Sequence record: NC_052659.1 | Strand: one strand, 5' to 3' | DNA length: 64,000 nt | Origin: Escherichia phage nieznany | The notes under the pieces: generated by a model | What the model was told of the DNA's origin: nothing | Databases searched by the model: none | The model's input: only the letters and a program-made list of their open reading frames with translations | Made by a program: the position numbers and the translations under genes | Shown: piece by piece, positions 4,681 to 62,174 of the stretch | Numbering within the stretch: the stretch's first letter is position 1 | Layout: the number at the start of each line of letters is the position of its first letter

Positions 4681-4944
4681 GTGTGTGCCGAAGGGGTGAA
4701 AATGAATATTCCAGATGATTTTTATACCCACGAGAACTCGTGGAGAAAGGCTCTTGAACGTCTTATCGAACTGGAGCCTGTAACTGGTGAACCTGACGAA
4801 GATAACCGTGGGTTTTGGGAACATGAATTACGTGCATTCAATCACGCTTATGAGCAACTTCATAAGGGTTGTCCCCATGATGGTGCTACCTACTATGATA
4901 TGAGTGGGCGTGAACGCTGTGGAATGTGTGGAGGTGATATTTGA
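4681..4944 (+). CDS. hypothetical protein (C-terminal CxxC)
   Basis: 87 aa ORF. Confidence 0.35.
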   Translation: MCAEGVKMNIPDDFYTHENSWRKALERLIELEPVTGEPDEDNRGFWEHELRAFNHAYEQLHKGCPHDGATYYDMSGRERCGMCGGDI

Positions 4945-5126
4945 GAAAACTTATTGTACCATGGCTCTATTGCCCTTGTGGGAGCAGTAAGATTGAAGTA
5001 GAGACTGAAAAAGGTGATGAGTTATACCTCTATTATGGCGACAAAGTGAAATGCCTTGTTTGCGGAAATGAAGGTGAAATCGAAACAGATGATTGCTGCG
5101 CGTATGCAGTGTGGGAGGATGAATGA
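4941..5126 (+). CDS. small zinc-ribbon-like protein
   Basis: CPCG...CLVCG cysteine pairs; 61 aa. Confidence 0.35.
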   Translation: MRKLIVPWLYCPCGSSKIEVETEKGDELYLYYGDKVKCLVCGNEGEIETDDCCAYAVWEDE

Positions 5127-5347
5127 GTACAGCTATTTATGTAAGAGGCGTGAGTGAACACGAGCAATGTCTTTTCTCTTTTGGGGAAGGTGTAGAGATT
5201 GAGGATATGTATCAAGAGATTTGCGAAGTCTTGGATAATGAAGGATTCACTATTGTAAACTCTTTTCTTGTTACATCATCTGAATATTTAGAGGTTGATT
5301 TAACACAGATGATGTTTAGTGTCCAAGAAACAGTTTTTGATTGGTAA
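5123..5347 (+). CDS. hypothetical protein
   Basis: 74 aa ORF with ATGA overlap. Confidence 0.35.
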   Translation: MSTAIYVRGVSEHEQCLFSFGEGVEIEDMYQEICEVLDNEGFTIVNSFLVTSSEYLEVDLTQMMFSVQETVFDW

Positions 5348-5356
5348 GGAGAAATA

Positions 5357-6472
5357 ATGCTGCAATTAAATCCTACATTGTATGGTAAAGACACCAAAGG
5401 TAATATTAAAGAATGGTCTGTCTATACGGATGGTGCAACTGTTACAGTTGGTCATGGTCGTCTTGGTGGGAAGATTACTACGAAATCCTATGAAGCTGAA
5501 GCAAAAAACATTGGTCGTTCCAATGAAACAACACCGGAAGAACAAGCTGAACTTGAAGCTTTTGCCAAATGGACAAAACAGTTAAAGAATGGCTATTATA
5601 AAACAAAAGAAGAAGCTGAAAACCATGTTCCTTCCACACCAATGAAATGCCAGGATTATAAAGATTATCCTGAAAGGGTTGTGTTCCCTGGTTATGCACA
5701 ATACAAACTGAACGGGTTACGTTCTATGATTAACATGAAAGGGGAGTGTTTATCAAAAGCTGGGGAAGTGTACAACCTGCCACCTCATTGGAAAGGTATT
5801 CCAAACTTTATTAGTGAAGTTGTTGGTCATCCTCTTGATGGTGAAGTGTTTGCTGGGTTAGGTGTCCTTAGTCTGCAACAAATTAACAGTGCTTGGAAGA
5901 AGCATAATGCAAATACACCTTTGCTGAATTATTACGTATACGATATTCCAGTTCCAGGTCTACCGTTTGAAAAACGTGTTGATGCTCTTGCTGCTCTTAA
6001 GGCAGTAGTTGAAGATTATGGTCTTGACGAGCTTATTTGTGTAGTTCATACAGAGTATATTGAAAACCAAGAACAGTTTGATGCTTTCTATGAAAAAGCT
6101 TTACTTGAGAAAGCTGAAGGTGTAGTATATCGTAATGCTCACGGAGTTTACGAATTTGATAAACGTTCTTATGACGTTATTAAACGTAAGCCTCGCCACA
6201 CCCTTGAAGTTAAAGTAATAAATTCAAAAAGTGATAAAAATGGTGATGGAGTGTTGACAGGTGAGATGGAAAATGGTAAAGTAGTCGAATTCTTAATGCG
6301 TAAAGATGCTCATGAGACTATCAATTATCGTAAAGCAGAGAATGCTTCTACCTTGATTAATCAGTTCGTTGAAATAGAGTATGAAGAATTTTCAGATGAA
6401 GGTATTCCAACAAAACCTGTTGGTGTTCGTATTCGAGAAATGATCCCAGGCACTTGGGAACCAGCAGAATAA
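5357..6472 (+). CDS. ATP-dependent DNA ligase-like nucleotidyltransferase
   Basis: Motif I variant KLNGLR (KxDGxR with D->N), motif III LDGEVF, motif V EGVVYR, KRK near motif VI; 371 aa like small phage ligases. Confidence 0.6.
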   Translation: MLQLNPTLYGKDTKGNIKEWSVYTDGATVTVGHGRLGGKITTKSYEAEAKNIGRSNETTPEEQAELEAFAKWTKQLKNGYYKTKEEAENHVPSTPMKCQDYKDYPERVVFPGYAQYKLNGLRSMINMKGECLSKAGEVYNLPPHWKGIPNFISEVVGHPLDGEVFAGLGVLSLQQINSAWKKHNANTPLLNYYVYDIPVPGLPFEKRVDALAALKAVVEDYGLDELICVVHTEYIENQEQFDAFYEKALLEKAEGVVYRNAHGVYEFDKRSYDVIKRKPRHTLEVKVINSKSDKNGDGVLTGEMENGKVVEFLMRKDAHETINYRKAENASTLINQFVEIEYEEFSDEGIPTKPVGVRIREMIPGTWEPAE

Positions 6473-6525
6473 GGAGGAAAAATGTTCTTAGCTTATCATT
6501 GTGCAAAATACCTGGAGGCATTTTT

Positions 6526-6708
6526 ATGATAATTTTAGCAACAATTATTATGATGTTGATAGCAATTGCTATTATAATTCTGGCATCTTTTCCGGCGGAT
6601 AAATGGTATTTCAATATTCCACGTATGCTTGTTTTCGGTTTCGCAGGGATTTACATGGGTGAGTCTGTAGTAAATATTAGCAACTTTCTAGAAAGCTATT
6701 TTAAATAA
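6526..6708 (+). CDS. small membrane protein
   Basis: GGAGG then ATG 6526; strongly hydrophobic MIILATIIMMLIAIAIIILA. Confidence 0.4.
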   Translation: MIILATIIMMLIAIAIIILASFPADKWYFNIPRMLVFGFAGIYMGESVVNISNFLESYFK

Positions 6709-6717
6709 GGAGTTATA

Positions 6718-7443
6718 ATGATCGAGAATTTTTTTAAAGATATTAAATTCGATACTGAATTTTTCAAAAATGCAGCAAAGCACGTAATTGATTGGAATGC
6801 CAAAGCACGAGGTGGTGAACAACCTGAATTCACTCAAGAGCTATTTATGTCCCAAATCGGGTTCGTTCGTGAAGAGCTTAAAGAGTATGAAACAGCCGCG
6901 AAAGTAAACGATCATGTAGAACTCTTGGATGCAGCAGCGGATATTTTTGTAGTATCCAGTTATCTTACTTACATGTTCTTTGGTGAAGAACATACGATGA
7001 ATTTCTTGGACTATGCTGTAGGCGATGTTTTTACTCCAACTGTGTATACTGATTTTGATGCTTTGGAACAAACATTTACAGAGCCAGTTCAAATGGCACT
7101 AATGGCTGCTGGTATTATGCGTATGTCTCGTGACACTCTAATCCGTTCAAAATATCCAGAAAAGAAAGTTATTAAAGAGGTATTGAAAAGTAATGATTCC
7201 AAGTATCCAACTAAACAACAGTTGCTGAAAACTTGGAAAACTTCGGATATCGATTCAGCCATTGCACAAGAATGCGCTGCAATTGAAGAACGAAATGCCA
7301 ATCGTCCAGAAGGGGCATACACTGGTGTTCATGCTGTTTATAATGAAAAACAGAAAGTGTATGTGTTCTTTGATGATAAAGGTAAGATCATGAAACCATC
7401 GACCTTTGTCAAACCTAATATTGCAGGTATTATTAATAAGTAA
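6718..7443 (+). CDS. MazG-like nucleoside triphosphate pyrophosphohydrolase
   Basis: EE-x-E...ELLDAAADIFVV helical motif typical of MazG/dUTPase-like all-alpha NTP-PPase. Confidence 0.5.
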   Translation: MIENFFKDIKFDTEFFKNAAKHVIDWNAKARGGEQPEFTQELFMSQIGFVREELKEYETAAKVNDHVELLDAAADIFVVSSYLTYMFFGEEHTMNFLDYAVGDVFTPTVYTDFDALEQTFTEPVQMALMAAGIMRMSRDTLIRSKYPEKKVIKEVLKSNDSKYPTKQQLLKTWKTSDIDSAIAQECAAIEERNANRPEGAYTGVHAVYNEKQKVYVFFDDKGKIMKPSTFVKPNIAGIINK

Positions 7444-7499
7444 TGTTGTAAGCCGCCCTTTATGGGCGGTAATGTGAGATGTATTAAATAGGAGGAAAC

Positions 7500-8378
7500 A
7501 TGTTTGTAAAATCTTTTAAATCCGCTCTGCCTATGGTTGTTGGTGACAATGCTTCTGTAGCATCCCTTAACAGCATTACAGATATTCCTCTGGAATTTGT
7601 AACAGCAGAAGGCTCCCAGTCACACACTATCGGTCTTGTTCGTTTCGAAGATGACTCTAAATTTGTAAAAGAGTTTTCAGATCTTGAACTGCTTAATGTA
7701 GGTCAATCTGTGAAGAAGGTAGATAAAAAGAAAGTTAAACGTATTCTGAATGAACGGCTAGAAGAAATGCGTCAGGACATGGAGAGCGAAGGTAAAGAGT
7801 TTTATGTCGATAAAGAAGTAGTCAAAGCAATGAAGGAAGATATTGAATTTGCACTATTGCCTGAAACAGAACCTGAAGATTTCTTTAACTATGTTGTCTT
7901 GGATAAAACTACGAATCTTCTTTATGTTCTTAATGGAAGTAAAAAGGTTGCAGAAGAGATTACTTCTTTCCTCCGTTCCGTTCTGGGGACTTTCCCTTCG
8001 GTAGGTTTTAGTGTGCATGAAGAAGCTATTGTAAAAGGTTTTGGTGAATTGCTGGAGAATCACGAAGCAGATCGTATTACTCTCGGAAATTATATCAAAA
8101 TGGAGGATAGCGAGGGCGTTGTTGTTTGGAGTAAAGAATCCCTATACGAGTCTAAAGCTGTCGAACTAAAAGAAGATGGTAAAGATGTTGTTGCAATCGG
8201 TCTTGAATATGACGGTGTTGTAGATTTCGTAGTGGATAAAGAGTTTAAACTTTCTAAACTACGTTTTCCGAAATATTTTGCAGACGAAGAAGGCAGTATT
8301 GAAGCTTCAGTCCTTCTGTGCTTCAATGAGATTCGAGGTCTGATGGAAGATTTAACCAAAGCAACAATCCTTAAATAA
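7500..8378 (+). CDS. hypothetical acidic protein
   Basis: 292 aa ORF, GGAGGA RBS. Confidence 0.5.
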   Translation: MFVKSFKSALPMVVGDNASVASLNSITDIPLEFVTAEGSQSHTIGLVRFEDDSKFVKEFSDLELLNVGQSVKKVDKKKVKRILNERLEEMRQDMESEGKEFYVDKEVVKAMKEDIEFALLPETEPEDFFNYVVLDKTTNLLYVLNGSKKVAEEITSFLRSVLGTFPSVGFSVHEEAIVKGFGELLENHEADRITLGNYIKMEDSEGVVVWSKESLYESKAVELKEDGKDVVAIGLEYDGVVDFVVDKEFKLSKLRFPKYFADEEGSIEASVLLCFNEIRGLMEDLTKATILK

Positions 8379-8380
8379 GT

Positions 8381-8440
8381 TCTTGACTTGCGGGATTAGT
8401 TATGATATTATGCCTACCTACTTAATGAGGTAGGCTTTTT
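8381..8440 (+). promoter_or_regulatory. sigma70-like promoter (TTGACT-17-TATTAT) followed by stem-loop GCCTACCT..AGGTAGGC + T-tract
   Basis: Seen in sequence; same promoter plus stem-loop architecture as the minus-strand cassettes at 50-57 kb. Confidence 0.45.
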
Positions 8441-8450
8441 AGGAGGCGTT

Positions 8451-8660
8451 ATGAAAAAGATTCTGACAGTCGTTCTTTTAGCTTTTAGTTTCACAGTAGC
8501 AGCAGGTCAAATTACTTTAATCTTGTCTGATTCTGAAGTTAATGGCAATACAAAATATTGCTACTATTCTAACGCTAACCAAGATGAAGTTATAGCAATC
8601 CCGAAAAGTCGTCAATGTCCGTATACTAAAACATTCTCAACAGAGGATGACGATGAATAA
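8451..8660 (+). CDS. small secreted protein (signal peptide)
   Basis: N-terminal MKKILTVVLLAFSFTVAAG hydrophobic signal; 69 aa. Confidence 0.45.
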   Translation: MKKILTVVLLAFSFTVAAGQITLILSDSEVNGNTKYCYYSNANQDEVIAIPKSRQCPYTKTFSTEDDDE

Positions 8661-8672
8661 TTAGGGGGAAAT

Positions 8673-9791
8673 ATTAGCGGTTATATTTTAATTAAACCTG
8701 AAGATCTTCATTTATATGTCAACGAAGAAACAATAGCTGCAATTGATTATGATCAGATCGCTTTCCAAGCAGCGTCTGCATTAGAGAAAAGAACAATCAT
8801 TGCGAAGCACATCCCTTCAGGTGCTCAAAAGGAATTTAAAAATAAGACAGAGTTTTGGGGTAAAAGCAAGACTAAAATTGGAGGTTGGCTAGGAGATACA
8901 AATGCAGAAAGAGCCTCCAAAAACAAACGTCCCTTCACAAAGGAAGAGTTCGAAATCATTGATAAGCAATACCCGCCAGAAGATATCGGACACACCTTCC
9001 AAGCAGCTAAAACAAAAGTCTTAGGTATTCTAAAACATCTACGTTTAGAAAAATATTGCGGAGTTATTGGCGTAGGAAAAACTTTCAGACACGCCTTCAA
9101 AATGCCTGTAGAATATAAATCTGAACGATTAGATATCAAACCACTTCAGCTTTCAGAAACCAAAGATTATCTTGTGGAGTTCCACAATGGTGATGTTGTT
9201 ACTGTAATAGAAGCTGATGATGAGTTAGAGAAGTATGGTTTCCAAGGTTATAAAGATTATAAAAGGACGGGTAAATTTTCTTATATCGTAGTATCTATAG
9301 ATAAAGATAGTTTACATACTCCTAGTATCCTTTTTAATTTCTACAAAGAGGATGGAGTATTTAAAAATCCAGATATAATTCTTATTGACGAGTCTATTGG
9401 CGATATATGGATCGTAGATAAAGGTAAAAAGAAAGAAGTTAAAGGTTGGGGCAGTTACTGGTTAGCATATCAGATGCTAATGGGAGATAAAACAGATAGT
9501 ATCCGACCTTATCAAGATTTTGATATTAAGTTCGGAGATATTACTTGTTTTAATCTTCTTTCAGCTTGTAAAACTCAAGCAGAACTTTTCCAAACAGTTA
9601 AAGATACTTACTACTCATGGTTCCCAGAGGGTGTTAATTTTACTTCTTGGGATGGAGAAGAAGTCCATATGACAACAGATGAATGGATAGAAACAATTTT
9701 CCAGTTGGTATACATGAAACGCTGGGATAATGACGATACAACATTTGAGAGTATGCTTCAGTCATACATCTCACAACAGGAGGCAGAGTGA
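8673..9791 (+). CDS. rnh: RNase H / 5'-3' exonuclease (FEN family, T4 rnh-like); start codon uncertain (no in-frame ATG/GTG/TTG between 8661 and 9101)
   Basis: IAAIDYDQIAF, IEADDEL, VVSIDKD, LMGDKTDSI match the FEN/T4 RNase H motifs recalled from memory; N-terminal catalytic region lies upstream of the first ATG (9102); ATT at 8673 after GGGGG is a candidate start. Confidence 0.55.
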   Translation: MSGYILIKPEDLHLYVNEETIAAIDYDQIAFQAASALEKRTIIAKHIPSGAQKEFKNKTEFWGKSKTKIGGWLGDTNAERASKNKRPFTKEEFEIIDKQYPPEDIGHTFQAAKTKVLGILKHLRLEKYCGVIGVGKTFRHAFKMPVEYKSERLDIKPLQLSETKDYLVEFHNGDVVTVIEADDELEKYGFQGYKDYKRTGKFSYIVVSIDKDSLHTPSILFNFYKEDGVFKNPDIILIDESIGDIWIVDKGKKKEVKGWGSYWLAYQMLMGDKTDSIRPYQDFDIKFGDITCFNLLSACKTQAELFQTVKDTYYSWFPEGVNFTSWDGEEVHMTTDEWIETIFQLVYMKRWDNDDTTFESMLQSYISQQEAE

Positions 9792-10747
9792 GCAGATTAA
9801 CAGAAGAGCAGAAAGCAGATATCCTTAGTATGAGTGCAGAGGGTATGTCTTCTCGTAATATTGCAGCAATTGTTTTAGGTAGTCCAACAAGAAAAAGCAC
9901 AGTGAACGATTTCCTTGCACGATTTGGAGCAAGTAAACAAGAGCCAGTTAAAAAGAAACAACCCGTTATTAAAATTATTGATGTTGAAACTGCACCAGAG
10001 ATTGCATATACTTTCCGTCGATTCAAAGCCTTCATTTCTCCAGATCAAGTAATTCGTAGGGGTTATTTGTTATCTTACTCTTCTGCTGACCTATATACTG
10101 GTGAAGTGGAAGGTAAGAACTTGTCTTCTTATCCTCTTTTTGATATTGATCATACAGATGATTGGGAGCTTTGCCAAGATCTTTGGAACCTTCTGAATGA
10201 GGCAGATGTAGTTGTGGCACACAACGGGTATAAGTTTGACCGTGCATACATTAACCAACGATTTGCATATCACGATATGGCTCCTCCTTCTAATTATGTA
10301 GTTGTTGATACATTGAAGGCAGCTAAGAAACAATTTGCACTTCCTTCCAACTCCCTTAAAGAAATGGGAGCATATTTCGAAACAGAAAGTGAAAAACTGG
10401 ATAACGAGGGGTTCCCTTTATGGAAAGCATGTTGTGAAGGTGATCGTGATGCTTTTGAACGTATGCAGATTTACAATGATGGTGATGTTGTTTCACTCCG
10501 TGATTTGTATATGAAAATCCTTCCGTGGATTCCACAGCATCCTAACTTATCCGCTTATTACCCAGATGAGAAGGTCCGTTGTTCTCGTTGTGGCAGTGAT
10601 CACGTTCACGTTGTTACTGGTAAACAATACCACACTGCGGTAAGTTCTTTCGATATCATTCGTTGTGAATCTTGCGGAGGTTTGTCACGTAGTAGAGCAA
10701 ACACCAGATCCAAGGATAAACGAGCAGCAACTATCATTGGAATCTAA
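9788..10747 (+). CDS. DnaQ-like (DEDD) 3'-5' exonuclease with N-terminal HTH-like region and C-terminal Cys4 cluster
   Basis: Exo motifs IIDVETA, VAHNGYKFD, YNDGD; CSRCG...CESCGG; GTG start overlapping rnh stop. Confidence 0.5.
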   Translation: MSRLTEEQKADILSMSAEGMSSRNIAAIVLGSPTRKSTVNDFLARFGASKQEPVKKKQPVIKIIDVETAPEIAYTFRRFKAFISPDQVIRRGYLLSYSSADLYTGEVEGKNLSSYPLFDIDHTDDWELCQDLWNLLNEADVVVAHNGYKFDRAYINQRFAYHDMAPPSNYVVVDTLKAAKKQFALPSNSLKEMGAYFETESEKLDNEGFPLWKACCEGDRDAFERMQIYNDGDVVSLRDLYMKILPWIPQHPNLSAYYPDEKVRCSRCGSDHVHVVTGKQYHTAVSSFDIIRCESCGGLSRSRANTRSKDKRAATIIGI

Positions 10748-48132: not shown

Positions 48133-49780
48133 ATTATGCTCCTTTGTAGATTATGTTGGTGCGTTCACACTCTGCCACCAGCAAGCCAAGCTTTGTAAAA
48201 CTTCATTAGACGTAAGCTACTCAACGGAACATTTTTACTCTCTTGCATGATAATCTCCTCTCATCGTTAGCCATCTTTCATGGCAATCATCAATCACCAA
48301 CATCATACGATCAATCTTAGGGAATTACAATCGAATTATCATAGGGGATTCCTATCAATTATCCCCTATATACCGATTATTTTTGACACCCCACTCTTGT
48401 ATAAAAAGTAACCCAAAATATCTACGGGGAGAGATTATTTCGGGACACCCTGTTTCATGGCAATCATGGCAAGAATATCTAATAGAATCAATATCATATG
48501 GCAAAAATCATGGCGCATACGTAAGAAGTGCTTAACGCGAATTTTCGGGCCGTCAGGTCCACGCAGCGACAATTCCCAAATATCATGCGAATGAGAATAA
48601 TTATCATTCGTATTCAATGACTTATGCAAAGCTCATGCCAACGTAGCGACAAGGTGGGCCACTTGATTATAAATCACACAAACACTTATTTATCAATGGT
48701 TTGGCAACCTCATCATATGACGGAACAATGTCAACTAATCCCGCTCATGACAAGCAGACTATTATTTATATGAGAATGATTATTATTTAAACGTTTATTA
48801 ATATAAAAACTAGAATAAATCAAGATTATTCTGATTTTATTTACGTTTAAGAGAAGGTGCTCAACATATCGCGTAGCGATAGTATTCGCCCCCCAAAAGA
48901 TTAGCCTTTATTTTCTTGTATGTTTATACACTATGTGCACACTATGCAACCTGTCGCTATTCGCTCATGTTGCTACGTGCAATTATTCATCTTGCTAATG
49001 ATGATCACACTGAACGATAGTGATAACTCTTGTAATTACCACAATGATTATTGTTATTGCGCTAATGTTATGATCTTGGTAATTACATATAATGCTAATA
49101 ATAAGCCAGCGCAATAAGTGTAAGCGTCATTACGCTTGCAATTATTGCAAGCTACGCAGTAACAAGAAATAACCGTCACCGATGGTTATGATTGTTGGGG
49201 TGTAGTTGGCTTATTATTAGCTCGCTATGTGTCCGGCATAGCGTGCTAATGATGACTCTGTGAATGATTAGTTTTGTAATGATTTCATTCAGGCACTATT
49301 TTGCTAATAGTTATTATTTTAATGGTTTCGTTTGTTATTGTTCGTTAGTTGGTTGTTTTGTCATGTTATCGTTATTTTGCTTAGTATTCATCATGGTTTG
49401 ATTGTTTGTCGTTATCAATCATCTTGCTATTATTCCTTTGATTATGATTAGTTTGCTTATTGTTTTATGTTGTTTGTTGGTTAGTTGTTGCGAACTATTA
49501 TCAACATTATAGTTATGCACTTATATTGCATAGATAAACATGGATAGATGATAATGGTTATCATTGCACCAGAAAGGAGGTAAAAGGGTGTTTTTGATGG
49601 TTTGTTGTTGGTTGTTGATCGATTTTAACCGCTTTAAATGGCTCTCTAACAGCCTGTAACCCTGGGATGTATGGTTATTCGTTTGCTGGTTGATTAGCTC
49701 GATACCACGATTTATTCAGTTTTGTTCTGTGTCGGTTTTTCATAGGCGAAAGCTATCAACATTGTTCGGGCAAAAAGAAA
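48133..49780. other. 1.65 kb noncoding, repeat-rich, strand-compositionally skewed region (G/T-rich tract 49300-49520; repeated GCTAAT(G/A)(A/T)T and CGTAGCGAC motifs)
   Basis: No convincing ORF; low-complexity GT-skew; at least five GCTAATGATGA-like copies (about 48991, 49058, 49092, 49243, 49303) and CGTAGCGAC-like copies in both orientations. Confidence 0.5.
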
Positions 49781-49797
49781 GGGCGCTTGGTGCGCCC
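49781..49797 (-). terminator. terminator hairpin GGGCGCACCAAGCGCCC followed by U-tract on minus strand (same element repeated at 52132)
   Basis: Identical 17-nt hairpin with AAAGAAA/TTTCTTT flanks at 49781 and 52132. Confidence 0.55.
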
Positions 49798-49813
49798 CTT
49801 GTTTTGTTGTCGA

Positions 49814-57135: not shown

Positions 57136-57321
57136 GATCTTAACTCCAAATAGTGAGCGGCACCATTGCCGCCCTACAAGATGAATACTACGCCGCCGTC
57201 TGGTTAACGTCAACCATTTTTCAATCTTTTTTATTTTCTTTTTGCTTGCTATATATAAAGAAAAGGGCTATTATCTTTCTACCGCGCCAACCAGGGCGCA
57301 CAACAAAGAAAGGGCGATACC

Positions 57322-57585
57322 ATGACAACTACATTACACCTTATGCACTCATTGGGCTGGCAAGGCGGCACGGTGCACCAGGTAGCAAGCGCAACGGGCT
57401 TAAAGGTTGAAACAGTTCTCAACCTGGGCGATCATAGGGTGGAAGAAATAGATCATTTTGATACGTTCGCAAATGGTTATCTATGGGCTTGCAGTGGCGG
57501 CGGGGAAAGCAAGATACCACCAGGGGCGCGGGGCGATATGTATTTTTGGTTAGGTGTCCTATCCTGGCAAGAAAACAAAAAATAA
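57322..57585 (+). CDS. hypothetical protein in GC-rich island (plus strand, opposite to neighbours); coding status uncertain
   Basis: 87 aa ORF with AAGGG upstream; local GC content visibly higher than surrounding phage DNA. Confidence 0.3.
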   Translation: MTTTLHLMHSLGWQGGTVHQVASATGLKVETVLNLGDHRVEEIDHFDTFANGYLWACSGGGESKIPPGARGDMYFWLGVLSWQENKK

Positions 57586-57587
57586 TC

Positions 57588-57616
57588 TTGACAAGCCCAG
57601 GGATCGGGCTTATACT
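57588..57616 (+). promoter_or_regulatory. near-consensus sigma70 promoter TTGACA-17-TATACT on plus strand
   Basis: Seen in sequence; spacer AGCCCAGGGATCGGGCT is itself an inverted repeat. Confidence 0.5.
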
Positions 57617-57845
57617 GTTTTACATACAGAAGAGGAAGCGCCACCCCCACGGCGTAAAGGCGGGGCTAACATACCAGGGGGCACTGGTTGGAAGGTTGAT
57701 CGCCGGTAGGCTGGGCGCTATATATTTGTAAAGAAATGTAAAGATAAAATAATCGCTTGCTTTCCTAGCTGGATCTGTTATTCTTATTACATGGCGAGGG
57801 GACACGGGAGCGCGAGACAAACACCGCCCCTGCGCGTCATTCTCT

Positions 57846-57953
57846 AAATGAGATTGATTCTTATTTAATAAGGTAAATGACAATCATTCTCATTTATAAA
57901 CTTAAATGCGAATCATTATCATTTGCATTTCCATATGAGAACTCTTCTCATTT
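57846..57953. repeat. four 21-bp palindromic sites (AAATGAGA-N5-TCTCATTT type) at exact 29-bp periodicity: iteron/operator-like array
   Basis: Sites begin at 57846, 57875, 57904, 57933. Confidence 0.6.
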
Positions 57954-57975
57954 TCACCTGCATAAAAATTTTTGT

Positions 57976-58152
57976 AAACTTTAAATTTTGCTTTTGTACT
58001 TTCATTTTTGTAAAAGCAAAAAAACTTTAAATACTGTGGGCGCGCAAAATTTTTAAAATTTTCCTTGACTTTTGAGTTTTGTTTTGTATCTAACATTTTA
58101 AGATAATTTTCCTAAACTTTAAATTTTGGTTTTCAACTTTCACTTTTGTAAA
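57976..58152. repeat. two copies of a 39-bp direct repeat AAACTTTAAATTTTG(C/G)TTTT..ACTTTCA(T/C)TTTTGTAAA (57976-58014 and 58114-58152) in an AT-rich noncoding region
   Basis: Seen in sequence. Confidence 0.55.
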
Positions 58153-58394
58153 TTCTTAAAAAGTTTAAATAATTTGAGGGATTTTTGAGATAAAAGATAG
58201 TGGGAATTTGATATAACCTTTAATCTTATTGGTAAACCTTCAGGAACCCACTCAGATCGAATCCTAGTGATGCAAACTGAAAAAGACAAGGGTTTGTATA
58301 GGACAAAATAACAGGCTCTCTACGGTGCTGTAGGAGCCTTATTTCTGGGCTACAAAGTGACACCTTTGTTCTAAAAATGAAAAAAGTTAAAATA

Positions 58395-58937
58395 TCACAA
58401 ATATCGTCTTTGCGGTATTTTGTCTGGGAAAAGTATTTCGATCAGTTTATTATGATATTTGCCTAAAAGATTCTGCCCTTTCCAGGTAGCAGGGTTTAGC
58501 ACCCCTGGTTCATACATTCCCATTCCAATACCGTAAACCTTATCGTAAGGACTTGCTTCAACAAACGTTTTGTATTGGTAAAGGTGTAAGTCTGCATACA
58601 AATCTGGATTCTGTACATATTTCAAGCATAAGCCTCGCATAACAATACGCTCACGGTTCTCTTCCCACATATCATTATTAAAACCAGATACCGCTCGACC
58701 CATACGTTTGTAGTATGCTTGTTTCCTCTCGTTGTCACGTATAGTTGAGTGATCAAGGATAGCTGCTGCAATCGCATGATCCTTGAACAGCAAAGCCTTA
58801 CGCCACATCATATATTGCTCAACACAACAGAAAGTCTCATTGTAACCTGGTTCAGTTTCTGTAAAGGGTGCAATATACCAATTACTAAACACATCTTTAT
58901 GTGAAAAGAAGAATACATATTCATCAGTTATTCTCAT
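58395..58937 (-). CDS. NADAR / YbiA-like (DUF1768) domain protein
   Basis: N-terminal YVFFFSHKDVFSNWYIAPF and EQYMMWRKALLFKD resemble the NADAR family signature. Confidence 0.5.
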   Translation of the reverse strand: MRITDEYVFFFSHKDVFSNWYIAPFTETEPGYNETFCCVEQYMMWRKALLFKDHAIAAAILDHSTIRDNERKQAYYKRMGRAVSGFNNDMWEENRERIVMRGLCLKYVQNPDLYADLHLYQYKTFVEASPYDKVYGIGMGMYEPGVLNPATWKGQNLLGKYHNKLIEILFPDKIPQRRYL

Positions 58938-59149: not shown

Positions 59150-59492
59150 AAACTGCGTCTGCGTCGATGAGTTTGTGTTTGTTGTTCCGCATGTAGTCTA
59201 AGATAAGTAGACGTTTATTGTATCTGGAGAGATTATGACCCTCTTTTCCGCCATAGTCAAAATATTTTGCAAGATCTTTACACTCAAACAAAATCAGTTC
59301 GGGAGTTTCTTCACACTGGTCTGTCTGGTACACTTGACGAATGATCATGTATACATCGTCGTCTTCCGCTAAATGCTCTACTGGTCCACATCCAGCAGGA
59401 ACAAATTCATAGTCCCATCTGATCAGATGTTTCTCTACTGCTTCAAAGAAATCCATCCTTTCATTGCGCATAATTTGAACGTCAACTAACAT
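59127..59492 (-). CDS. hypothetical protein
   Basis: 121 aa ORF. Confidence 0.4.
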   Translation of the reverse strand: MLVDVQIMRNERMDFFEAVEKHLIRWDYEFVPAGCGPVEHLAEDDDVYMIIRQVYQTDQCEETPELILFECKDLAKYFDYGGKEGHNLSRYNKRLLILDYMRNNKHKLIDADAVYGYWWMD

Positions 59493-60946
59493 GTTTCCTC
59501 CTCTCTCATTATTCCACCTGCTTGGTTGATAGCACTTAAGACGATAGCCAAATCCTCGCGCAGGAAGGTTTCACTATGACCATCTTTCATGTGCAAGCGT
59601 TCTACACAGCCAATAGACGGTAGAATCTGATCAGTCTTAGACTTTAGCTTACTCTCTAACGCCCTGCAAGCTTGGTAGGACGGCAGATCGAACAATGCTA
59701 TACGGCGCATAGAGTAATTGTTGTTTGCATTCTGCCCTTTGATCCTGATATCACTGTCCTTTGCAATCCCCAACTTGTAAGCTCCCGTGTCTTCTCCGTA
59801 CTCATCAAGAATAATATTGATGTAAAATTCTTGCATATTTCTGTTCTTACAGCCTGGACAACCTTTCCCATTGAGATAATCGGTAGGTGTGATCGTTTGC
59901 TCTCCATGCTCCCTACATAGATATTTAAACTTGCTGTTATTGCTTACCTTATCAATGAATCCTATAAATTGATCCCCTCGTTCCTGGCAAGCTTTGGTCA
60001 TACGGTAGGCCCATTGTTCAGGAGTGTAATGATAATATTTAGAACAACGGCAAGGAAGGCCACCCCTTTTCAAATGACTCATCTTCATCTCAAATTTATT
60101 ATCGCATAAGCCTTCTTTACAATAATCATCCTCTGCACATATAGGACATTCTACAATCCAGTAAACCTGACGACCTAATCTATCTACTCTATCGCTACGA
60201 TAATATTTACGCTCTACATTATCAGGACAAGCTTTTATAAAATCTTCAACATGTTGTTTATCCTCCATAGTATTCCTTTGTTTCGTCATTTCTCTTTGAC
60301 AACTGTAGCATCCAGTCCCTTGTTTAGCACTGTTTACAGTGGTAGTGCACCATTGACCATGAACCTTACACTCACAAATCAACTTAGTGCGGGAACCGTT
60401 CCACGGTTCCACATAGCCTCTAACAATCCAGGGTTTTTCTTTATAAGCTTCTTCTACTTCTTCTTTATGTTTCTCCCATGCAATCGATGTTCTTTCTCTG
60501 TTTGCTTCTCCCATACACTTCCTGCATCCACTCCCGTTTTTCGCAGAAGATATAGAAGTAGACCTCCACTCCCCATGTAAAGCACAACAACAAACCAGTT
60601 TAGTATTCCATCCTTTCCATTCTCCGTGCCATCCTGTAACAGTCCAAAACTTACCTGCCTGATTGTAAGTGGTTTGCACTTCTTCTTTATATTGCTCCCA
60701 GGTTTTTGATTTGTTTATAGATACTGCTTTACTTATAATCTCCCTACCGCATTCTGGACAACCCCTCCCTAGTTTAGCGGTATTTATGCTTGTTGTTTTC
60801 CATTCTCCATGCAGAGCACAGATGCATCTAAGTTTAGTTTTATTGCCGTTCCACGGCTCAATATAATCTACAACAGTCCAAGACTTACCTTGATAAGCTT
60901 GTTTTATATCTGTTTTATATTGTTCCCAAGTGACTATTTTTGGCAC
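59486..60946 (-). CDS. zinc-finger repeat protein (three or four about 65-aa Cys/His modules) with possible C-terminal GIY-YIG-like nuclease domain
   Basis: Repeated W..Y.EPWNG..TKL.C.C..HGEW.T....AK.G.GC..C modules; C-terminal FYINIIL-x9-YKLGIA-x6-R resembles GIY-(10)-YIG-R. Confidence 0.35.
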   Translation of the reverse strand: MPKIVTWEQYKTDIKQAYQGKSWTVVDYIEPWNGNKTKLRCICALHGEWKTTSINTAKLGRGCPECGREIISKAVSINKSKTWEQYKEEVQTTYNQAGKFWTVTGWHGEWKGWNTKLVCCCALHGEWRSTSISSAKNGSGCRKCMGEANRERTSIAWEKHKEEVEEAYKEKPWIVRGYVEPWNGSRTKLICECKVHGQWCTTTVNSAKQGTGCYSCQREMTKQRNTMEDKQHVEDFIKACPDNVERKYYRSDRVDRLGRQVYWIVECPICAEDDYCKEGLCDNKFEMKMSHLKRGGLPCRCSKYYHYTPEQWAYRMTKACQERGDQFIGFIDKVSNNSKFKYLCREHGEQTITPTDYLNGKGCPGCKNRNMQEFYINIILDEYGEDTGAYKLGIAKDSDIRIKGQNANNNYSMRRIALFDLPSYQACRALESKLKSKTDQILPSIGCVERLHMKDGHSETFLREDLAIVLSAINQAGGIMREEETC

Positions 60947-61034: not shown

Positions 61035-62174
61035 TTAGAACACGCTACCAAGTGTAGTGGAACGTTGTGTTACAGGCTCCAGCACCACTCGCAAAGTGTT
61101 TCCTGGTGTAGTGCTCATAACCAGAATCTTACCACCTTCAATCAGATCACAAGTTAGACCATCAGCCGTTGCACATAGATCAATATGTGGATCACCATCT
61201 TCATCCAGGATAACATAACTGTTGGTTTCCATTGCTTCCACTTCATCATCTTTCAAACTTTGTAGATAGATGTTCAGGGAACAAGCACCCGACAAAAACT
61301 TAGTAGGGGTGAAGTCGTGCCAGTTATTGATCCAATTCACCTTCAAGGTTTTGCCATTAGCTACGATAGAAGCCACATTCCATTTAGCATCGTTCCCTAA
61401 AGAAATACCCATCATTTCAAGACATTCTTTAAAAGTCATTTTTGGATAGAAATTCAATTCTTCTACAATGCCTTGAATAACATCGAAAGACAACTCTGTG
61501 CTAACATCCCATAAACGTTGGAAGTTATCTACGTGCTTTTTATTTACCAAGTTCTTATCCAAGTAATCTAACATAGTTTCACTAGACAGTTTATCGTAAT
61601 TGAAACTGTAGTAGATACGACTAGGACGGTTTACAAAATATTCCGAGATATAACCACTATTTTTAGTGAGGATGTAAAGTTTATTCCCACTTCCTGTTCC
61701 ATCCAACAAGGTCAACAGTGCTTCCTGATCTTCTTTCTTAGCGTACACTTTATCAAATTCGTCAAATAAAACAACAGCACGATCTGTAATTTTACTCATA
61801 AATTCTAAGAAGCCAGCATCTGTGTAAGGCTGTGTAACCAAAATGGTTGGAATACCTAAACCTTCTGTGGACATTAGAGACATGCTAATCAGTTTAGCTA
61901 ACATCGTCTTACCACTGCCTTTTGTCCCTGTCAGTAACACCCCAGTATTTTTACCTTCTTTACTACGACGAGCAAATGTTTTAATAACATGTGCGGCGCG
62001 ATTTTTAGTTTCCCCATAAAGAGTGTTCGGAAGAGAGAAACTTTCACCACGCACTAAAGAGTAGTTACCGTGCGGATCGCAGTTGACAACCCAAACTCCA
62101 GCAGGAAGTTTATTAGCTTCAACGCCATATTCCTTATTTACAACAGCTACATCTCCAAAAATAGTGTATTTCAT
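61035..62174 (-). CDS. AAA-family ATPase
   Basis: Walker A GTKGSGKT, Walker B VVLFDEFDK, sensor-1-like ILTKN and RPSRI. Confidence 0.6.
   Translation of the reverse strand: MKYTIFGDVAVVNKEYGVEANKLPAGVWVVNCDPHGNYSLVRGESFSLPNTLYGETKNRAAHVIKTFARRSKEGKNTGVLLTGTKGSGKTMLAKLISMSLMSTEGLGIPTILVTQPYTDAGFLEFMSKITDRAVVLFDEFDKVYAKKEDQEALLTLLDGTGSGNKLYILTKNSGYISEYFVNRPSRIYYSFNYDKLSSETMLDYLDKNLVNKKHVDNFQRLWDVSTELSFDVIQGIVEELNFYPKMTFKECLEMMGISLGNDAKWNVASIVANGKTLKVNWINNWHDFTPTKFLSGACSLNIYLQSLKDDEVEAMETNSYVILDEDGDPHIDLCATADGLTCDLIEGGKILVMSTTPGNTLRVVLEPVTQRSTTLGSVF

Follow-up and report, generated by a model that had tools for sequence, protein, structure and literature searches.

Fur-type operators in a non-coding promoter hub of the virulent Escherichia phage nieznany and its relatives

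Introduction

Escherichia phage nieznany (NC_052659.1) carries, in a non-coding gap of about 800 bp, four 21-bp palindromes that follow each other at a fixed period of 29 bp. In this study, we analyse a stretch of 64,000 nucleotides of this genome (the window, whose positions are used throughout). We report that the palindromes are best read, on their motif, as boxes for host Fur (ferric uptake regulator), a repressor that is dimeric and depends on Fe2+, rather than as the iterons of a replication origin. We consider it rather probable that these Fur operators provide iron-gated control of transcription, which would run from two upstream promoters, P1 and P2, into an adjacent AT-rich repeat region. 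This reading builds on the identity of the motif, its selectivity for Fur-regulated host promoters, its conserved position and spacing and the lack of a detectable phage Fur homologue.

The Fur box is a well-known kind of element; its carrier and architecture are what is unusual here. The boxes are found in strictly virulent phages, they are full palindromes of fixed period downstream of a promoter, further copies lie in the terminal repeats, and unrelated phage families share the motif. Fur boxes are textbook parts of bacterial iron genes and of a few cargo operons in prophages. The open-access papers that could be searched, subscription journals being outside reach, gave Fur boxes on phage DNA only in front of prophage cargo (for instance sitABCD, PMC6969025) and none in T5-, rV5- or phAPEC8-like phages.

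Four palindromes at a fixed period

The gap that holds the array, referred to as the hub, is bordered by a NADAR gene on its right (58395-58937, minus strand) and by a block of small genes, each with its own promoter. All annotated genes surrounding the array lie on the minus strand of the window. Positions 57300-58700 are 99.7% identical to Escherichia phage vB_EcoM_Schickermooser (Phapecoctavirus, Stephanstirmvirinae), and the same region is 95-98% identical to about 50 other phAPEC8-like phages.

An earlier interpretation made from the letters alone (the sequence-only reading) had described four 21-bp palindromes at exact 29-bp spacing with inverted half-sites, followed by two AT-rich direct repeats of 39 bp. 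Rereading of the sequence bears this description out. The boxes start at 57846, 57875, 57904 and 57933 (period 29/29/29, spacers of 8 bp), and the inverted half-sites are present, though the palindromes are imperfect: 8, 9, 8 and 8 of 10 arm positions are complementary in boxes 1 to 4, respectively. The direct repeats were found at 57976 and 58114 and are identical at 35 of 39 positions. The consensus of the boxes, AAATGAGAAT-C-ATTCTCATTT, is a perfect 10-1-10 palindrome, and its core, TGA(G/T)AAT-N-ATT(C/A)TCA, is a 7-1-7 inverted repeat extended to 10-1-10.

The boxes were scored with a weight matrix for which 21 phage sites alone served as the training set, and high scores of the phage sites themselves are circular for this reason. 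Box 1 (57846..57866, AAATGAGATTGATTCTTATTT) has the weakest arms and scores 27.2 bits; at its position phage ESCO13 has AAATGAGAATGATTATCATTT. Box 2 (57875..57895, AAATGACAATCATTCTCATTT) scores 31.7 bits and agrees with the classical E. coli Fur consensus GATAATGATAATCATTATC at 15 of 19 positions. Box 3 (57904..57930) consists of AAATGCGAATCATTATCATTT and an overlapping second site, GAATCATTATCATTTGCATTT, which is shifted by 6 bp and starts at 57910 (31.7 and 11.3 bits, respectively). The first 25 of the 27 nucleotides of this stretch form a 25-base motif with two degenerate positions that occurs exactly in 32 viral contigs, mostly from T5-like phages. Box 4 (57933..57953, ATATGAGAACTCTTCTCATTT) has a degenerate centre and scores 23.7 bits.

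The array is by far beyond chance. Allowing up to three mismatches, the consensus 21-mer has seven strand-matches in the 64 kb as compared to 0.01 expected, and the 15-bp core has 14 matches as compared to 2.45 expected. Sites of at least 21 bits number seven in the window, all of them inside two non-coding regions. The palindrome thus recurs away from the array, with further Fur-type boxes at 48589, 48768 and 49546. In 631 kb of unrelated viral DNA no comparably scoring site was found, one relative excepted.

The palindromes match host Fur operators

The core TGAGAAT-C-ATTCTCA differs from the Fur-family sequence TGATAAT-N-ATTATCA at a single symmetric position, and this position is alternately G or T among orthologous sites of related phages. 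Measured against the classical 19-mer, the phage boxes agree at 13-15 of 19 positions and the entS, entC, fecI and fur operators at 15-16 of 19; against the 7-1-7 inverted repeat TGATAATNATTATCA the phage boxes agree at 11-13 of 15. The orthologous site of phage 4MG, AAATGATAATGATTATCATTC, has canonical GATAAT/ATTATC half-sites and matches the 7-1-7 core at 14 of 14 positions.

The phage matrix was scanned over 162 kb of E. coli K-12 DNA, in which it picks out Fur-regulated promoters. In the 590-640 kb region of K-12 the five best matches all lie in the fepA-fes, fepD-entS and fepB-entC intergenic regions, which are Fur-controlled. In the fec region the promoters of fecI (ATATGAGAATGGTTATCATTA, 23.8 bits) and fecA take the top two places, and in a control region the Zur box of znuA reaches only 1.5 bits. 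Altogether, seven of the nine matches of at least 7.5 bits in this host DNA fall within known Fur promoters. Patterns for Zur, LexA, DnaA, CRP and IHF gave no match in the hub.

Bacterial genomes contain the exact palindrome AAATGAGAATNATTCTCATTT more than 120 times. Among 150 open reading frames (ORFs) flanking it, the commonest Pfam families are FUR (14), ZnuA-type metal binding (11) and iron-type solute-binding proteins (7), followed by TonB-receptor Plug (6), AhpC (5), ferritin (5), FeoA and FeoB (4 and 2), siderophore oxygenase (3), extracytoplasmic function sigma factors (2) and rubrerythrin. This profile is the signature of a Fur-family regulon. In its exact 21-bp form the palindrome is widespread among bacteria (Proteobacteria, Actinomarina, Gracilibacteria, Neisseria, Massilia; genome contig loci L135-L254) and often stands directly 5' of genes for Fur-family regulators and ZnuA-type transporters. 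Because it is spread over such diverse bacteria beside genes of these kinds, the identical sequence may serve Fur, Zur, Mur or PerR paralogues, differing by lineage.

The pattern of variation points to a protein as well. Departures of the phage sites from the consensus number 41, of which three are compensated on the opposite arm and 38 break complementarity. Selection therefore acts on the sequence of the half-sites, as for a dimeric protein, and not on base pairing. Conservation per column amounts to 1.64 bits in the boxes versus 0.98 bits in the spacers.

E. coli Fur operators such as those of fecI and entC (...AATGCTTCTCATTT) have the core inverted repeat with flanks as in the phage boxes and agree comparably well with the 19-bp consensus. 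Host operators have overlapping sites with a 6-bp shift (Chen et al. 2007, PMC2189734); in the phages such sites are found at box 3 and at palindromes E, G and I of phage T5, and are absent or weak at boxes 1, 2 and 4. Unlike host operators, the boxes described here belong to the non-coding DNA of a virulent phage and have no iron gene attached. They are discrete full palindromes of fixed 29-bp period, whereas host operators form tightly overlapping clusters, and they lie downstream of a promoter, with extra copies in terminal repeats, whereas host operators lie over the promoter.

Host Fur as the most likely binder

The sequence-only reading took the palindromes for cooperative sites of a dimeric DNA-binding protein, as in a tightly regulated operator. 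The match to a dimeric repressor operator and the independent variation of the arms agree with a dimeric binder and with an operator; the binder, however, appears to be host Fur rather than a phage helix-turn-helix protein. Searches with E. coli Fur (tblastn) found no homologue in Phapecoctavirus, Vequintavirinae, Justusliebigvirus or T5-like records. Likewise, no homologue of the T5 pre-early proteins, including the DNA-binding A2, was found in the window or the related loci searched.

A phage candidate is the product of an 87-amino-acid ORF (phrog_19316) at 57322-57585, the only plus-strand ORF nearby. Its AlphaFold model is all-alpha, with five helices and a predicted local distance difference test (pLDDT) value of 95, and the modelled conserved N-terminal stretch GGTVHQVASATGLKVETILNL looks like a helix-turn-helix. 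It has no Pfam, PDB sequence or significant Foldseek match. The ORF is present in about 150 phage records and is missing from box-carrying Cronobacter and T5-like phages. We rejected it as the binder, since its phyletic spread does not track the boxes and the model has no significant structural neighbour. Given that no phage Fur and no shared T5 pre-early protein was found and that the 87-amino-acid ORF is missing from box-carrying phages, a host protein is the parsimonious choice, and by its operator motif host Fur is the most likely binder.

The promoter hub upstream of the array

The whole gap is a module conserved in Vequintavirinae (CR3, POP15, 4MG and others) and Stephanstirmvirinae (phi92, alia and this phage). 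It reads rightward, opposing the flanking genes. Promoter P1 (57588..57616, plus strand; TTGACA-17-TATACT) is a sigma-70-type promoter with an 11/12 match and is kept in all relatives. The sequence-only reading had placed the array next to the NADAR gene and to a strong outward promoter; gene and promoter are both there, but P1 aims inward at the palindromes. Downstream of P1 lies a GC-rich (57%) non-coding element of about 100 nt (57620..57725, plus strand), which is near-invariant across subfamilies and has no Rfam match at gathering thresholds. The island was rejected as protein-coding since indels among the relatives are not multiples of three; the two GenBank coding sequences annotated as frameshifted over it, Schickermooser_00256 and 00257, look spurious. 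As a structured RNA it finds no support, with one covarying pair and folds no better than those of shuffled sequences.

The putative promoter P2 (57757..57784, plus strand) is predicted as TTGCTT-16-TATTCT and reads TTGCAA-17-TATATT in Vequintavirinae. Upstream of it stands the direct repeat TGTAAAGA-AA-TGTAAAGA (57727..57744, plus strand; GTAAA-N5-GTAAA). This repeat, TGTAAAGAAATGTAAAGA, fits the CpxR-box pattern, as does the box GTAAAACAACGTAAAG of the host cpxP promoter. By a 10-bp indel between the subfamilies the CpxR-type repeat keeps its helical phase relative to the -35 element of P2. From these sequence features, P2 may be activated by the host envelope-stress regulator, and with a weak -35 element of the kind typical of such promoters it is probably activator-dependent.

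A GC-rich hairpin (57791..57840, plus strand) with the outer stem ATGGCG/CGTCAT ends 5 nt before box 1; in CR3 the outer stem is ATAGCGGG/CCCGCTAT. Its fold is not thermodynamically exceptional (z = -0.02). The linker ATTCT between hairpin and box 1 is conserved, a T5-like phage included. In 15 of 15 IMG/VR loci with a conserved P1 element the first box keeps a constant offset from the P2 hairpin. The number of boxes per locus ranges from 1 to 5 among relatives, with periods of 29/29/29 in the window, 29/29/38 in CR3, 29/29 in POP15 and 29 both in 4MG and in the Ro1 relative.

Boxes in the terminal repeat and in T5-like phages

Three further Fur-type boxes lie in the window away from the hub. 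The window interval of about 48533-48861 is where the Schickermooser record and several independent records have their ends, with about 48861 as the first or last position in several independent GenBank entries. This interval corresponds to the direct terminal repeat of 329 bp reported by Korf et al. (PMC6563267). The terminal repeat therefore includes two boxes, GAATGAGAATAATTATCATTC (48589..48609, 30.1 bits) and ATATGAGAATGATTATTATTT (48768..48788, 25.3 bits), at distances of 74 and 253 bp from each physical end. The third, AGATGATAATGGTTATCATTG (49546..49566, 21.0 bits), lies just beyond the terminal repeat, about 0.7 kb to its inner side. The surrounding 1.7 kb (48135-49810), which contain the physical genome ends, are non-coding and rich in repeats. 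Promoter scans at the terminal-repeat boxes gave ambiguous matches, as the Fur box itself resembles a -10 element. A scan of about 72 kb of the Schickermooser record returned no sites beyond these. The scanned part of the virion genome thus has nine boxes, four in the array, two in each terminal repeat and one more. Between the array and the right end there are 9.3 kb in this genome, as compared to 14 kb in Schickermooser.

A blastn search with the array unexpectedly matched the left terminal repeat of T5-like phages. In T5, strong boxes fall on three annotated palindromes, namely E (9472), G (9576, 34.8 bits) and I (9611), direct repeat C has Fur-type half-sites, and companion sites shifted by 6 bp are present in the region. 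Palindrome G, AAATGAGAATCATTATCATTTGCATTT, and AAATGCGAATCATTATCATTTGCATTT of this phage share a long near-identical stretch. T5-like loci have 1-8 boxes with spacings of 35, 29 and 6 bp, and boxes are also found in each terminal repeat. The T5 region with palindromes E, G, H and I and direct repeat C is reportedly also covered by Heusterspreute in 1987 and Wang in 2005.

The T5 boxes adjoin DnaA boxes and palindrome D (record positions 9330-9349, TACTGTATAAATATACAGTA). The LexA SOS-box pattern CTGT-N8-ACAG is seen in palindrome D as well as in its copy within inverted repeat D (positions 4833-4848 and 1638-1653 of locus L098 from T5, AY587007, and about 2396-2415 of locus L003). By its sequence patterns, the stop-signal region of T5 combines LexA-, DnaA- and Fur-type sites. 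Repeat Region 3 of T5 has been placed at the injection stop signal, with a calculated shear point of first-step transfer at about 9618 (Davison 2020, bioRxiv 10.1101/866236). Fur is mentioned neither in this study nor in the paper on BF23, which notes a lack of functional studies.

Repeat Region 3 and the hub have in common the motif, spacings from one series (29 and 35 bp), non-coding repeat-rich DNA, further direct repeats and an association with terminal repeats. Paired DnaA boxes (IRD'/IRC'), the LexA-type palindrome D, nine DRD repeats and a terminal repeat of 10 kb are peculiar to T5; neither a DnaA nor a LexA box was found in the hub (57560-58400 for DnaA) or in the terminal region of the window. 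The hub, unlike the T5 region, has P1, P2 and the CpxR-type repeat, and its direct repeats differ in sequence.

Proposed mechanism and alternatives

From motif, position and spacing we infer Fur occupancy, the direction of regulation and a role for the gated transcription. When iron is replete, Fe2+-Fur dimers would occupy the boxes. As 29 bp make about 2.8 helical turns, successive dimers would sit on different faces of the DNA and coat about 110 bp. Located about 55-165 nt downstream of the expected P2 start, the occupied array would separate the promoter island from the AT-rich repeats, as a roadblock or by occlusion. Bound Fur would block or hold back transcription from P1 and P2 and might keep other proteins off the repeat region. 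Under iron scarcity Fur would leave and the gate would open, and the hub would in this way be tied to host physiology. We favour a cis-acting gate because relatives keep the offset and the period, yet for some of them one box is enough.

Several points weigh against this account. As stated above, the high scores of the phage sites are circular, and the informative part of the matrix test is the 162 kb of host DNA. The boxes begin about 55 nt downstream of the predicted P2 start and not over its -35, -10 or +1 positions, and promoter-like matches that overlap the boxes are weak and not conserved; the position of the boxes relative to the promoter bears on the mode of action and not on Fur binding. 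The copy number of 1 to 5 in relatives means that the fourfold array is not essential. Finally, a single cis-regulatory account may not cover every box location, because no obvious P2-like promoter precedes those of the terminal repeat here or those of the left terminal repeat in T5.

As a by-product of the gate, and given nine boxes in the about 72 kb scanned, the replicating phage pool would tie up a considerable part of the Fur in the cell, much as happens in the Fur titration assay. The gate ranks before a second explanation, in which sequestration is the main function: the boxes would act as a sponge that derepresses iron uptake, RyhB and other Fur targets and feeds iron-dependent phage enzymes such as the class Ia ribonucleotide reductase, and where they stand relative to promoters would then matter less. 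We judge this unlikely as the main function, though well worth keeping in mind; it may be selected itself because the phage encodes this iron-dependent enzyme (NrdAB). E. coli contains about 5,000-10,000 Fur monomers per cell, which is comparable to a few hundred genomes with nine sites each. The nine strong boxes of the scanned part of the virion genome are found in three places including both terminal repeats, and T5-like phages have 1-8 boxes per locus and boxes in each terminal repeat. The boxes are near the consensus. Titration by multicopy Fur boxes is established in principle, with derepression of fhuF::lacZ according to work cited in PMC2189734. The titration plasmids resemble the phage in carrying many strong Fur boxes on a high-copy replicon, but they are laboratory constructs, whereas the phage array is natural, conserved and position-specific. 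A pure sink would need neither the strict offset of the first box from the P2 hairpin nor the 29-bp period, some relatives have a single box at this locus, and the lytic cycle gives derepressed uptake systems little time to deliver iron.

The T5 connection brings up a signal for DNA entry or end handling akin to the T5 injection stop, at which host proteins on boxes close to the ends, and at the inward limit of the terminal early-gene segment, would make the incoming genome pause, anchor it or shield it. At the T5 shear point near 9618 the same motif (up to 34.8 bits) is that of palindromes E, G and I and of direct repeat C, two boxes lie within 253 bp of each physical end of this phage, and the array stands at the inner edge of the small-gene block that is transcribed toward the right end. 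For phages of the rV5 and phAPEC8 types, however, there is no evidence of staged injection, the array lies at variable distances from the end (9.3 kb versus 14 kb), and the hub has neither DnaA nor LexA boxes. We regard this explanation as quite improbable. The same low credence applies to its widest form, in which three virulent lineages (T5-like Demerecviridae, Vequintavirinae and Stephanstirmvirinae) would use Fur-box arrays, located in the terminal repeats and where the terminal early-gene block ends inward, as a checkpoint for entry or end handling that depends on a host factor. Fur, with DnaA and LexA in T5, would then be the long-sought cis-acting partner of the T5 stop signal, and delivery or activation of phAPEC8- and rV5-like genomes would be staged and iron-tuned.

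The sequence-only reading had put forward iteron-like sites of a replication origin, or else a tightly regulated operator, bound cooperatively by a dimer. The dimer would here be phage-encoded, for instance the product of the 87-amino-acid ORF, and the operator could be autoregulated. Plasmid iterons and, for the transcription-activated type, the origins of T7 and T4 that consist of a promoter plus AT-rich DNA are the models. The likeness lies in promoters that read into AT-rich repeats with host-factor sites flanking them: P1 and P2 read into a region of 23% GC, lineage-specific direct repeats adjoin the boxes, and the conserved all-alpha ORF product with its possible helix-turn-helix is encoded upstream. 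The palindromes themselves do not fit. They are inverted repeats and not directional iterons, they match a host repressor operator and select host Fur promoters, and the same boxes recur in the terminal repeat and in T5-like phages. No DnaA box lies in 57560-58400, and none of the neighbours was identified as an initiator. Box-carrying Cronobacter and T5-like phages lack the ORF, and its product has no significant structural match. The switch in GC skew is at about 36 kb of the window and follows gene orientation. As a reading of the palindromes the origin is contradicted, and the explanation as a whole retains only a small probability.

By analogy, Fur at the boxes could be a barrier that stops H-NS filaments on the curved AT-rich repeats from spreading over P1, P2 and the early promoters. 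Fe-Fur counters H-NS silencing at the host ftnA promoter, the boxes lie exactly at the junction of the GC-rich island (57-58%) and the A-tract-rich region of 23% GC, and the 29-bp period would let about 110 bp be coated on all faces. This idea is purely inferential and fails to account for boxes within 300 bp of the genome ends, which leaves it very improbable. It is scarcely credible that the palindromes work at the RNA level, as four AU-rich hairpins in tandem on the P2 transcript (weak terminators, sites for RNase or proteins): the region is probably transcribed and each palindrome can be folded into a hairpin followed by UUU, but sequence and not pairing is conserved, the boxes are also met in other settings and at host promoters, and Rfam gave no family at gathering thresholds and chance-level matches only at E values up to 10. 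A blastn search of the array against 5,426 E. coli genomes gave chance-level matches only, the query being too short for blastn.

If Fur binds, these phages would read the iron status of the host to time non-coding transcription beside an iteron-like region, or they would manipulate the Fur regulon by titration, and in both cases iron physiology would have a bearing on how an infection turns out. This is of relevance for phage therapy in iron-limited tissues, for which phAPEC8-, rV5- and phi92-like phages are candidates. For T5, palindromes E, G and I and direct repeat C, catalogued since 1987 at the stop site of first-step transfer without assigned function, would gain a first concrete candidate identity. 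E. coli BL21 that overexpresses feoB or ydiE is protected from T5 and the T5-like phage CEV2, an effect that the authors credit to Fur repression of the receptor gene fhuA (PMC7553319). Phage-borne Fur boxes are a second candidate route to this protection, and the finding suggests that the screens of PMC7553319 be reread.

AT-rich repeats and the right border of the hub

The AT-rich (23% GC) direct-repeat region to the right of the boxes (57967..58176, plus strand) comprises two 72-nt copies, a degenerate middle copy and no reading frame. The 39-bp repeats are the cores of the 72-nt copies at 57967-58038 and 58105-58176, which are 82% identical; the degenerate third copy is at 58055-58088. Repeats were compared between 57967-58176 of the window, 1920-2125 of locus L006 and 1850-2060 of locus L004. 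Stephanstirmvirinae have the repeat ACTTTTCATTTT...AAAAACTTTAAATA in 2-3 units (three in phi92), and Vequintavirinae have at the same position another family, GAGAATACGATC...TCGATCGAGACCC, in 3-4 units. Because the repeats hold their position yet differ in sequence between subfamilies, the comparison suggests that they are sites for a co-evolving phage protein, for which they could be iterons. Their motifs were rejected as general phage promoters, being found at this locus only.

The right-hand limit of the hub is the intrinsic terminator of the NADAR operon (58311..58345, minus strand), a stem-loop followed by UGUUAUUUUGU (-21.3 kcal/mol, z = -2.96). A simple terminator scan missed it because its stem is bulged. 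This terminator could also stop the rightward transcripts from P1 and P2. At the far right of the hub, short CAAATATCA repeats (58386-58402; 2270-2345 in both L004 and L007) overlap the end of the upstream gene and are conserved between the subfamilies despite the different neighbouring gene. Two genes upstream of NADAR, a protein of 486 amino acids (59486-60946, minus strand) has five CapR-homology repeats and matches an endonuclease family of PHROG; its gene adjoins that of an AAA ATPase (61035-62174).

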